IMG/VR virus record: IMGVR_UViG_3300028048_000110
Location: 26,992 to 90,991 of that record
Length of the DNA stretch: 64,000 nt
Reading direction: 5' to 3' (one strand)
Source of the DNA: a virus
Taxonomy: Duplodnaviria; Caudoviricetes
Part shown: positions 28,953-63,590 of the stretch, piece after piece
How the letters are laid out: the number at the start of each line of letters is the position of its first letter
Position numbering within the stretch: position 1 is the stretch's first letter
Program-made: the position numbers and the translations under genes
The notes under the pieces: model-generated
Seen by the model: the letters and a program-made list of their open reading frames with translations, nothing else
What the model was told of the DNA's origin: nothing
Databases searched by the model: none

Positions 28953-28993
28953 CACATATACTTATACTCATATAGCAAAATCGAGTGAACTAG

Positions 28994-30279
28994 TCACACC
29001 CTAAATGGTGTGATCTTCAAGTGTTCTTCCTTGCATCTAGTGCAATCACTTGATTTTCTTGCTTCACAGTCGGCAGTTCCACATGCACAACTTGCATCAT
29101 GCATGCCAGCGCTTCCAACTCCACAAGCGTTGATTCCCGACGTCCCATCGGTACTTTTCATAATGTCTCTCAAAGCAAAGTTCCTTATGTTGATTGCAGC
29201 ATTCAAGTCTCTGTCAATCTTCATTCCACATTCTGGACACGCATATACTCGGGCATCTAATGGCATCTTCTGCTTATGCCCACAGCAATGACAGATCTGA
29301 GTAGAAGCTTCAAACCTTCCAATTTTCTTGAAGATCTTTCCTTCTCTCATTGCTTTGTAGCTTAGCATAGATGTGAACATGCTCCACCCCAAGTCTGAGA
29401 TCTTTCTGCCCAAAGCTTTTTCATTCCTTGCAGACTCAAGTCTTCAATGCAGAAGTAGTCAAATTGGCTATCTTTGACTAGTCTTGTTGAAGTCTTGTGC
29501 AAGAAGTCTTTTCTTTGGTCAGCAATCTTTTGGTGTATCTTTGCTACTTTGATTCTTTGCTTCTCTTTGTTCTTGCTTCCTTTTGTCTTTTTGCTTAACT
29601 TCCTTTGCTCTTGTGCTAGCTTGTCTAGCATCTTCTTGAAATACTGTGGACTGTCAATGCTGTCTCCATTTGAGAATGTCATGAACGTCTTCAGTCCGAA
29701 GTCAATTCCCAACGAGTTCTCATAAAAGATCTTAGCATCGTCAATCATCTTCTTTAGCTCATCCTTTACATGGACAATGAATGACACATAGTATTGTCCA
29801 GAAGAATTCTTTGAGACTGTTGCAGTCCCTATCTTCCCTTTCTTGACTCGTCTTGAGATCTTTACTTTAATTCCATTCTTCCTTGAGAACTTTGGTATCT
29901 TGATCTTTGAGTCTTTGAAGTCAATCTGGAAATGTTGAGGGATCTCAAATGAGTCTTTGTCATACTTCTTTGACTTAAACTTTGGAAAGTTTGCTCTTCC
30001 AGCAAAGAAGTTGTTGAACGCTCTGTCAAGATGGCCAACTGCACATATAAGACTTTGGCTATTCACTTCATAAAGCCAAGGATTTGCTTCTTTAAGCTTC
30101 ACGGTCTCTCCAGAACAATTCAATCCAATTGAGTTTAGGTACTTCTATTGGGATGCATACCTTTCTTGATTGAGATGAAGAGCCCAATTGTACATGAAGT
30201 GTGTACAACCGAAGTGTTTAGCAAGAAGAACCTTCTGCTCATCTGTTGGATATATCCGGAATCTATATGTCTCAATCAT
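28994..30279 (-). pseudogene. tnpB: TnpB RNA-guided nuclease with a one-base frameshift near 29410
   Basis: YRFRIYPT HTH, LGIDFGLK, CIEDLS, CHCCG..CPECG..DRDLNAAINI; 1286 nt, one short of a multiple of 3; 1 TAG. Confidence 0.85.
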
Positions 30280-30312
30280 TTGGTAATAGAGATATTGTAC
30301 GTTTTACAGCTC

Positions 30313-53750: not shown

Positions 53751-54025
53751 ATGAAGACAGATTCAAATAAGCAAATTGAAATACATATTTTGACTAAAGA
53801 CAAAACTAGATTTTTTTTATACCTCAGTTGAAGCACAAATTAAAAAAAAATGAATTGTCTGCATCAATGATGTTCTGCTTCTATGAGATCTTCTATTGCC
53901 AAGAAATTCAGTTTAAAACTTGGACTTACTTCTGTTCTGTTTTTTCTCTAGAGACAGCATTGAAGTGTCTATGATACTATACTTCTTTCTAGACTTCTTG
54001 CGCAATTGCAATATCTGCATGTGAG

Positions 54026-61756: not shown

Positions 61757-61943
61757 TAGCATTGTTCAATGCTAGTAGTGAGATGACATTAGTGTGACTT
61801 TACTTCAACTATTCTATTTTTGTTTAGTAAGACTACCATCATATGAGGTAAATTATTATTAGTGGTTTAGCGTATTGCCTTAGCACATCTAACTCTAACC
61901 AGAGGGAGAAATTTGACATTACCTTAATCACACTCAATATGAG

Positions 61944-62018
61944 TGCCCTTCAGTGTGGCGGTCGCACGTTGGTCTCTAAAACCGAAGGTGGTGGTTCGAC
62001 TCCGACCAAGGGCAGCCA
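61944..62018 (+). tRNA. Amber suppressor tRNA, anticodon CUA, probably Gln-accepting
   Basis: Acceptor TGCCCTT/AAGGGCA; D-stem GTGT/GCAC; anticodon stem TTGGT/ACCGA with loop CT-CTA-AA (CTA at 61976-61978); T-loop TTCGACT; encoded CCA; U1-A72 and G73 as in bacterial tRNA-Gln. Confidence 0.9.
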
Positions 62019-62080
62019 ATATAAGTTTCTTATTTAGACTCATGGTTCGCGCCAACAGATCTAAATAAGAAACTTTTAAA

Positions 62081-62087
62081 GTAAATA
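62081..62087 (+). promoter_or_regulatory. GTAAATA candidate late promoter
   Basis: Upstream of HNH ATG 62126. Confidence 0.5.
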
Positions 62088-62125
62088 GTTATTGTCACGC
62101 GAATGACAGAAAGATAAAGGTAAAA

Positions 62126-63217
62126 ATGATATCAAAAGAAGAAGCTTTATACGCTTATAGTGACTTGATCTAGTATAGAACACAAAATGTTTTAGTCAAG
62201 TCAAAATAGAATCCTGGTCAAATTGAAATTCATCATATTGTTCCAACATCAATCGGTGGAATAGATGATAATTCAAATAAGATTGCTTTACTTGCCAAAG
62301 AGCATTTTATGGCGCATGTTTATCTTTGGGTAATACATCATGATGATAACTATCATGACTAGATGACTTATGCATTGATGAACATGCATAAAGGATCATT
62401 AACAGGAAATAGAAAAAATCTTAGAGAATTTATTTTAGCATCTAGTGAATATTAGAAAGCTAGAGAAGAATTTGCTAAGATGTCATCTATATCTTTATCT
62501 AAAGCAAATGCTGGAAATAAAAATCCATCATTTGGAAAGCATTGGTTTAAAGACCCTAAGTCTTTAAAAAGCAAATTATTTTTTAATGGAGATAAACCTA
62601 AAGGATGGATTAAAGGTAAGCATGTTTCTGAAAATGAAAAAGTATCTGCAACTAAAAATATGAAAGGGCGTATTTGGATATATAATGATTCTATAAAAGA
62701 AAATAGATTACTTCCAAAAGATCAAGCATTTAGTTTAGTGGAGACTGGAGAATGGAAATTTGGTCATATGCAAAAACCAATATCAAAAGAAGGCGTAGAA
62801 AACATTAGAATGGCTAGAAGAAACTATAATTATAAGTATCATTGCCCAAAAAATAAAGGAAAATATAGATACATTAATTAGAAGACCAATGAAATTAAAT
62901 ACTTTTCATTAGAAGAAAATATTCCAAAAGATTTTGTTAGAACTAATGCATTAAGAAAGCTACAATTAGATCAACAAACTGCTACTGGAAATACTAGCAT
63001 GACAAAAAGAGAACAAGCAAAGAAAAAATGGCTTGAAGAAACACAAGCAATGGCAAATTATTTTACTAAGTATGGATATAAAGCTACATGTGAGAAATTT
63101 AATGTTTCAATGAGCTAGGAATCAATGATTATGCGTTTCATCAGAGCTAGAAAATTATATGGAATCATATTTAAAAGCCAACCTGGTAAAAGACGAAAAT
63201 TTGATAATATATAGTAA
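62126..63217 (+). CDS. HNH homing endonuclease, 363 aa, 7 TAG
   Basis: EIHHIVPTSIGGIDNNSNKIALLAKEHFMAHVYLW; NUMOD-like GNKNPSFGKHW and GRIWIYN; markedly AT-rich; ends TAG-TAA. Confidence 0.85.
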
Positions 63218-63228
63218 AATATAATAGT

Positions 63229-63489
63229 ATGCAATTTGAATCACAAGCAGAACTTGACAACTACAACAACAATCTTGTTGAGACGAATGTCCGTCTTATG
63301 GGAGACAAGACTGTTGTTGGCCAAGTGCTGCAGCTTCTCTCTTACATCCGCCATGCAGTGCGGAACAACATGAAGACTACTATTGAAGTAGACATTGCAA
63401 ACACTGTTGCAAATGTCCCTTTCATGCTTGATGCAAACGGTGTTGAAGTGCCTGACCTTGTCACAGTTAAGAAGACATAGGTCAATTGA
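63229..63489 (+). CDS. Hypothetical protein, 86 aa
   Basis: Track ORF extended through 1 TAG to TGA. Confidence 0.65.
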
Positions 63490-63560: not shown

Positions 63561-63590
63561 AATGCCTAGAAAACTATTTTCTAGGCATTT
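63561..63590 (+). terminator. Intrinsic terminator-like hairpin
   Basis: AATGCCTAGAAAA-CTA-TTTTCTAGGCATT. Confidence 0.6.

Follow-up and report, generated by a model that had tools for sequence, protein, structure and literature searches.

Can a tRNA gene that changes the meaning of a stop codon travel between phages together with a mobile nuclease gene that needs that change? The question is raised by a locus in the window, a 64,000-nucleotide stretch of caudoviricete DNA that makes up the final 64 kb of the 90,991-bp IMG/VR viral contig IMGVR_UViG_3300028048_000110 (positions 26,992 to 90,991). At positions 61,944 to 63,217 of the window, a tRNA gene with the anticodon CUA is followed by a free-standing HNH endonuclease gene with in-frame TAG codons. 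The best explanation, to which we assign a probability of about 60%, is that the locus is a Mob-type HNH homing gene lodged 3' of an amber-suppressor tRNA-Gln(CUA), with homing like that of the T4 endonuclease SegB, in which the tRNA would serve as flank and be carried along as a passenger. It is probable that the tRNA that changes the code moves from phage to phage together with the nuclease.

The host genome of this locus is that of a TAG-recoded myovirus of the rumen/gut type that reads TAG as glutamine. CheckV puts the completeness of the contig at ~50%, from which a genome size of ~180 kb is estimated by extrapolation. The phage encodes two tail-sheath paralogues. Most long open reading frames (ORFs) in the window stay open only if TAG is a sense codon, and TAG is used across the late genes of the phage, not in the HNH gene alone.

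The putative suppressor tRNA and the nuclease gene behind it

ARAGORN calls a single tRNA in the window, with the anticodon CTA, and the same single one in the entire contig. An initial annotation of this DNA had stated that the only intact tRNA of the window reads TAG, and this agrees with the ARAGORN call; a decayed second copy, described below, fits the word "intact". The gene (61944..62018, + strand) scores 31.8 bits with the Rfam tRNA model, against a gathering score of 29, and across eight related CUA tRNAs its cloverleaf is retained via compensatory changes at 11 of 21 pairs. It carries U1:A72, G2:C71, G10, U35, A37, G73 and an encoded CCA, a set of marks that, under the identity rules of E. 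coli glutaminyl-tRNA synthetase (GlnRS), predicts a glutamine acceptor. We read the gene as a putative Gln-like amber suppressor with a constrained cloverleaf and Gln-type identity marks. In the nuclease alignment, TAG falls on a conserved glutamine at Q79 (seven loci) and at Q110 (four loci), where the remaining loci have CAA or CAG, an alignment that points to Gln as the probable meaning of TAG. The best-known counterpart is E. coli supE, a tRNA-Gln(CUA) amber suppressor. Both have the CUA anticodon on a Gln-type body and share U1:A72, G73, G2:C71, G10 and U35, whereas the window tRNA differs in C3:G70, A38 and an irregular T arm, in being encoded by a phage, and in serving a genome-wide reassignment. 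It is 97% identical to the tRNA of the relative L007, from which it is set apart by a swap between C:G and U:A in the acceptor stem. Taken together, the CUA tRNAs of the relatives fall into at least three sequence types, which are mutually 60-69% identical.

The nuclease gene (62126..63217, + strand) has 363 codons, seven of which are TAG read as Gln (codons 16, 28, 79, 110, 252, 331, and 363). With its ATG at 62126, it begins 108 nt downstream of the tRNA, leaving a gap of 107 nt, and its GC content is 29% versus 43% in the upstream flank; the initial annotation described it correctly as an AT-rich, free-standing gene at this distance. Its count of seven TAGs, two of them before the HNH motif, also stands, because the HH pair of the motif is at codons 36-37. 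With translation table 11, the locus yields no piece longer than 133 aa (62480-62881), and this piece does not contain the motif. The full-length HNH protein is obtained only with TAG read as Gln, and thus synthesis of the nuclease needs amber suppression, as had been claimed. The gene is intergenic: it is located between the tRNA and a small gene, orf86, and has a promoter motif and a ribosome-binding site of its own. An Rfam scan found no intron match at the locus.

The window protein matches phrog_655, annotated as "homing endonuclease", with E = 2e-23. Searches with tblastn retrieved T4 MobA and the mobile endonuclease E (mobE-like) genes of T4-like phages, with 28-34% identity over the N-terminal half and values down to 1e-9. 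The catalytic motif aligns with the HNH motifs of McrA, Cas8f-HNH, and Cas9, and six residues (E34, H36, H37, N51, H60, and H64) are invariant in 16 homologues. Matches to NUMOD3 are weak, with E = 0.055 for the window protein and 0.003 for its homologue in L013. These similarities suggest a Mob-type HNH homing endonuclease that is a distant relative of T4 MobA and MobE.

Is this gene still a working one? If it were an inactive, decaying remnant, its closeness to the tRNA would be without consequence, and two observations fit this: the window protein scores under the Pfam HNH cut-off (14.7 vs 22), and the copy in L008 is shortened to 277 aa. The L013 homologue lies above the cut-off of Pfam HNH_4 (22.9 vs 22). 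However, the catalytic residues are invariant, the frame is open over its full length with TAG read as Gln, and the promoter, leader, and ribosome-binding site are conserved. The pairwise ratios of nonsynonymous to synonymous substitution (dN/dS) of 0.13-0.29 further indicate that the gene has been kept by selection, and we regard decay as very improbable.

The build of the protein is modular, with a catalytic head and separate modules. In L012 (5992-7290), the gene that occupies this site, and that shares both the leader and the C-terminal domain, carries a GIY-YIG-like head instead of HNH; this head matches phrog_314 at 2e-30, and its matches to Pfam GIY-YIG and to SegE are weak. By its sequence, the L012 gene is a head swap between two homing-endonuclease families.

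Linkage, empty alleles and mobility

A search over 5.8 billion proteins returned 70 homologues of the nuclease, nearly all from gut or rumen metagenome assemblies. Close relatives were taken from ENA and Logan assemblies, together with five contigs from the Joint Genome Institute (JGI). Scanning IMG/VR with the single HNH protein gave nothing, and an alignment-based scan gave one distant match. Linkage was counted over 13 independent loci that have upstream sequence among the contexts retrieved, the window included.

In all 13 loci, the nuclease gene is closely preceded by a tRNA gene. The distance from the tRNA to the start codon is 64-113 nt in 12 of them and ~240 nt in L008; for comparison, the chance that a single tRNA ends within ~110 nt 5' of a single gene, on the same strand, in 91 kb is ~6e-4. 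The tRNA has the anticodon CUA in nine loci (the window, L007, L008, L009, L010, L011, L012, the L013 group, and L022). The other four have a non-CUA tRNA: L019 and L023/L032 (both UUU after removal of an insert), L035 (UAA), and L036-L038 (Lys UUU). The assignments of L032 as Lys and of L035 as UAA are from ARAGORN, and that of L019 was made by eye. A pattern search for the anticodon arm found related tRNA(CUA) genes in L003 and L005, which are accompanied by neither such a nuclease nor the leader; thus, the linkage is a property of this clade rather than of recoded phages at large. The initial annotation had proposed a survey of HNH-tRNA(CUA) linkage: with nine CUA loci, it is far above chance in this clade, and it does not extend to L003 and L005.

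Position 5' of orf86 offers a direct comparison of filled and empty sites. This conserved 86-aa gene (63229..63489, + strand; dN/dS 0.05-0.15) is the constant right-hand neighbour of the tRNA-nuclease cassette and also occurs without it. Both tRNA and nuclease are present 5' of orf86 in six lineages (the window, L007, L008, L009, L012, and the L013 group), and both are absent in two recoded relatives, L027, where the order is sheath, 228 nt, orf86, and NrdD, and L039, where a divergent gene is followed by 86 nt and orf86. Empty alleles, for which the initial annotation had suggested looking, do therefore exist. Among the relatives compared, the orf86 locus never had one of the two genes without the other. 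In L010 and L011, the block of two tRNAs, leader, and HNH gene has quite different neighbour genes and no orf86, and overall the cassette is found in at least four different gene neighbourhoods. A search of the window genome for the genes flanking the L010 and L011 cassettes, which would show movement within one backbone, matched only TnpB.

The sequences themselves are mosaic, with an abrupt change of identity at the boundary between tRNA and leader. L035 and L036 have 100% identical HNH genes and 96% identical leaders behind tRNAs that are 64% identical. The window and L009 share 89% of the leader and 67% of the tRNA, whereas the window and L007 share 97% of the tRNA and 80% of the leader. 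The tRNA of L011 is nearest to that of L013, and its nuclease is nearest to that of L010. From the exchange between L035 and L036, the tRNA looks like a landing site and a co-converted flank rather than an obligate partner. The HNH gene is AT-richer than its flanks in 11 of the 13 loci. The proportion of synonymous differences (pS) separating the window from L007 is 0.44 [0.36-0.52] for the HNH gene, 0.63 [0.59-0.68] for the sheath gene, and 0.60 for orf86; the lower value of the HNH gene suggests that the two cassettes have a common origin that is more recent.

One could nevertheless suppose that the linkage is historical, in that a single old insertion has been inherited vertically and the nuclease no longer moves, perhaps being retained for another purpose such as excluding competing phages. 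The steady leader spacing (102-113 nt in 11 loci), the purifying selection on the nuclease, and the presence of orf86 to the right of most cassettes are in line with this explanation. The number of neighbourhoods together with the empty alleles is not, nor are the identical HNH genes next to different tRNAs, the exchange of the catalytic domain at the same site, and the AT-richness of the HNH gene relative to its flanks. As an account of the whole locus, we consider it unlikely.

A different question is whether the two genes form a mutually dependent pair, as the initial annotation held. All 13 nuclease genes contain in-frame TAGs (3-10 each), and those located beside a Lys UUU or a UAA tRNA contain 7-10. 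Since family members next to ordinary tRNAs are equally TAG-rich, amber dependence reflects the code of the genome and not the neighbouring tRNA. With TAG in all late genes and with the tRNA exchange between L035 and L036, the notion of mutual dependence is weakened.

The same evidence bears on the stronger proposal that the tRNA and the amber-dependent nuclease constitute a self-licensing gene drive, which enters phages without a suppressor, standard-code phages included, and seeds reassignment there. On paper the cassette is self-sufficient: a terminator closes a single unit that contains the tRNA as well as a TAG-gated nuclease with a late promoter. The tRNA and the HNH gene are gained and lost jointly, a TAG occurs within the first ~20 codons in 12 of the 13 family members, and the clade includes both recoded phages and relatives whose sheath gene is TAG-free. 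However, each of the 13 cassettes is in a phage with TAG already in use elsewhere among its genes (in L013, for example, a 670-codon ORF has 13 TAGs), and among the relatives examined no standard-code phage had a cassette. Three relatives with TAG-free sheath genes, L026, L030, and L031, which are likely standard-code phages for that reason, have neither a tRNA nor a member of the nuclease family in the 60-184 kb of their incomplete records. The nucleases beside ordinary tRNAs, with their dependence on the genome code, and the swapping of the upstream tRNA also speak against a drive. Furthermore, if the tRNA gene is the target, genomes that lack it offer none. The code-spreading drive put forward in the initial annotation is thus only partly supported, and in its strong form, with entry into phages that are not recoded, we consider it unlikely. 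The corresponding extension of our own reading is that a self-licensing homing block, by co-conversion, places a working UAG-decoding tRNA in related phages lacking one; homing endonucleases would then spread reassignment and might even have initiated it. We regard this as a long shot.

SegB-like homing next to the suppressor tRNA is the reading that we favour, and its steps can be outlined. Late in a mixed infection, the nuclease would cut the tRNA/orf86 region of relatives that lack the nuclease gene. Repair from the donor would then copy in the nuclease gene and its flank, the suppressor tRNA included, which would amount to intronless homing of the SegB type. The TAG codons and the late promoter would hold back the nuclease until the code switch, as they would every late gene, and the leader would confine translation to the late transcript.

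Several observations count against this reading. No closely related pair of filled and empty sites on which to see a conversion tract was found; identity in orf86 is no more than 49% for L027 and 73% for L039. Vertical descent from one old insertion, followed by rearrangement, could explain part of the linkage. The L035/L036 mosaic means that the nuclease and leader move independently of the upstream tRNA. Codon use biased towards AT may partly account for the low pS of the HNH gene. The T arm of the window tRNA departs from the norm and has either a loop of 8 nt or a G.G mismatch. Finally, the AlphaFold2 model of the window protein has a mean predicted local distance difference test score (pLDDT) of 69, falling below 50 over residues 21-56; with its catalytic core modelled poorly, it gave no Foldseek match in the PDB at E <= 0.001.

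The structured leader and the transcription unit

The DNA between the tRNA and the nuclease gene encodes a putative structured leader. Hairpin 1 (62023..62075, + strand) has a 16-bp stem, formed by 62023-62038 with 62060-62075, and a 21-nt loop of the form CTCATGG-TTCGCG-CCAACAGA, and is followed by a T run; 10 of its 16 pairs are changed on both sides among the relatives. Hairpin 2 (62093..62108, + strand), TGTCA-CGCGAA-TGACA, has a stem that covaries, being TGTGTTG/CAACACA in L012 and GATGTT/AACATC in L019. The hexamer TTCGCG in the loop of hairpin 1 (62046..62051, + strand) is complementary to CGCGAA in the loop of hairpin 2 (62098-62103), so that the two would form kissing loops. In the relatives, the loop of hairpin 1 follows the conserved pattern CTCATGG-NNNNNN-CCAACAGA, and the hexamers covary: eight different complementary pairs occur across the loci (TTCGCG/CGCGAA, TTCCTG/CAGGAA, TTGTCG/CGACAA, TTGCTG/CAGCAA, TTCGAG/CTCGAA, TGTCAG/CTGACA, TGTCAC/GTGACA, and TTCGCT/AGCGAA). 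In an alignment of nine leaders, 84.5% of cells pair, compared with ~40% in slid controls, and the covariation score was reached by none of 500 shuffles. The fold z-score of the window leader is -4.1.

Two known classes of RNA were considered for the leader and rejected. A theta ribozyme, that is, one resembling the hepatitis delta virus (HDV) ribozyme, and a group I intron both lack an Rfam match and misfit in topology and size. With lax filters, cmscan of 286 bases found the tRNA only and no Rfam family for the leader, HDV-like families included. The helices with covariation support are the two hairpins and the loop-loop helix, and not a nested double pseudoknot. Theta ribozymes are a minimal HDV-like class that phage tRNAs have at their 3' ends (PMC10879173). 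They are similar in that a conserved structured RNA begins almost directly behind a suppressor tRNA, a few nt from its 3' end, in a recoded gut or rumen phage. The window locus differs from them in having no HDV-like match in Rfam, in its architecture of two hairpins joined by a loop-loop helix, and in a tRNA that encodes its own CCA.

How the leader may act is suggested by the position of a promoter motif within it. The window has 17 sites with the motif RRGTAAATA (for example, at 54024 and 57558), a 14-fold enrichment over the 1.2 expected, and several copies are close 5' of structural genes that bear TAG; we regard it as a late-promoter-like motif, for which TATAAATA is the comparable late-promoter motif in T4. 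The copy at 62079..62087 (+ strand), AAGTAAATA, lies between the two hairpins, 39 nt before the ATG, and its position is conserved in the relatives. Hairpin 2 would probably be located at the 5' end of the late mRNA or close to it, and the sequence AAGG, a presumed ribosome-binding site, follows it on the 3' side (62117-62120, + strand). Transcripts that read through from the tRNA would fold both hairpins and be translated poorly, whereas the late transcript, starting between the hairpins, would be translated. The leader probably restricts translation to the late transcript; under the self-licensing reading, which we regard as improbable, its kissing loops may also couple nuclease translation to the tRNA transcript. 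T4 endonuclease genes are likewise translated only late, and our model of the leader resembles this arrangement.

The leader is not confined to the HNH family. Hairpins 1 and 2 are also found 5' of other endonuclease-like genes within the tRNA arrays of large phages, namely in L019 (7009-7108, a second copy), where a zinc-finger/NUMOD3 ORF follows, and in L064 (8617-8740, - strand), where the gene behind it belongs to another family, phrog_945 ("endonuclease"). In L057, a 414-kb phage, hairpin 1 alone follows a tmRNA gene (1987-2008, - strand). A strict hairpin-1 pattern had no match in IMG/VR, and a relaxed 16-base pattern had 24. The expected context, in which a flanking hairpin comes right behind a tRNA-like 3' end, was present only in L064 and L057; the rest, in which this context is absent, appear to be chance matches. 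The leader looks like a shared module of large phages that joins the 3' flank of tRNA genes to the 5' end of homing endonuclease genes.

Upstream of the main suppressor, a decayed tRNA(CUA) copy, tRNA#1 (61861..61936, + strand), is recognizable by alignment with L012, L010, and L011. It retains the CTCTAAC loop, but neither the anticodon stem nor the T arm nor the 3' end is intact, and ARAGORN does not call it. The copies of tRNA#1 in L012, L010, and L011 look better preserved and are likewise in tandem 5' of the main suppressor, from which it follows that the ancestral cassette had two CUA tRNAs. Just 5' of the tRNA pair, GGTAAATT (61847..61854, + strand) is a one-off variant of the late-promoter motif and a candidate promoter of the tRNA transcript; its context, TAAATTATTATTAG, is also present in L012.

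The tRNAs 5' of the nuclease have further peculiarities in the relatives. In five of them, they are split (L009:744-891, L010:6925-7067, L011:1291-1436, L019:4746-4889, and L032:3739-3889, which is the same as L023), whereas the window tRNA is not. The split point is in the anticodon loop, and the insert is itself a complete, tRNA-shaped sequence of 69-75 nt, whose acceptor stem has 7 bp and which in most cases encodes CCA. Without the insert, CTCTAAA or CTCTAAC (CUA), or else CTTTTAA (UUU), is restored, and ARAGORN calls three of the parts as tRNAs. Several of the suppressor tRNAs have non-canonical T loops, such as AGCGTTA, TGCAAAT, and GGCAGAG in place of the expected TTCRANY (L008:7692-7765, L013:4505-4579, L022:477-549, and L010:7026-7067), and some of them are missed by ARAGORN. 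Suppressors in such phages are likely undercounted by tRNA finders.

On the 3' side of the HNH gene, orf86 is followed by an intrinsic-terminator-like hairpin with a T run (63561..63589, + strand), the predicted end of the tRNA-HNH-orf86 unit, and then by the ATP-cone start of an NrdD-like gene. In the L013 group (L013:6048-9032; also L014-L017), the NrdD gene 3' of orf86 is in two pieces of ~350 and ~425 aa separated by ~630 nt with small ORFs, an interruption that may be an intron or another mobile insert. Farther away in the window, at ~28985-30291, a TnpB (IS605 OrfB) gene encodes a protein that is 70% identical to the TnpB near the L010 cassette (L010:2678-4021).

Known systems and implications

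The precedent cited in the initial annotation is real: SegB is a free-standing homing endonuclease encoded inside the T4 tRNA gene cluster; it cleaves the tRNA region of a related phage, and co-conversion leads to preferential inheritance of the donor's tRNA region (PMC2330249). The window locus resembles it in having a free-standing endonuclease gene among phage tRNA genes, and by this analogy we propose cutting and co-conversion here. SegB is a GIY-YIG enzyme, whereas the window enzyme is HNH, although a GIY-YIG head occupies this site in L012. In addition, the passenger here, as judged from sequence, is a code-defining amber suppressor that the nuclease itself needs.

The nearest named relatives of the nuclease are T4 MobA and MobE (PMC2790892, PMC2988022), with which it shares the HNH head and a match, below the cut-off, to a NUMOD3-type linker. 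Also common to them are an intergenic site and late, tightly controlled expression, the latter being predicted for the window gene. In contrast to it, MobA and MobE are found beside topoisomerase and nrd genes, with no tRNA, no in-frame stops, and no kissing-loop leader. Gating of a homing endonuclease by reassigned stop codons has been proposed for Agate phages, where synthesis is expected only after the late code switch (Borges et al., bioRxiv 10.1101/2021.08.26.457843). That endonuclease is in an intron and uses TGA, and neither linkage to a suppressor tRNA nor co-mobility was proposed for it. Our literature search found no paper that describes a linkage between a suppressor tRNA and a homing endonuclease. 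What is new here is that a nuclease is physically coupled, in a conserved manner, to a code-defining tRNA, that at one locus the two are either both present or both absent, and that a kissing-loop leader is shared.

These findings define a family of homing endonuclease genes located 3' of tRNA genes behind a common structured leader, and the leader is a new handle both for finding such genes and for studying how they are silenced until late infection. They also address an open question, the repeated origin of stop-codon reassignment in separate phage lineages. With a code-conferring gene tied to a mobile nuclease, there is a concrete and testable route by which suppressor tRNAs may move horizontally between co-infecting phages; if the block were indeed self-licensing, homing endonucleases would be a vector for the spread of the code through phage populations.

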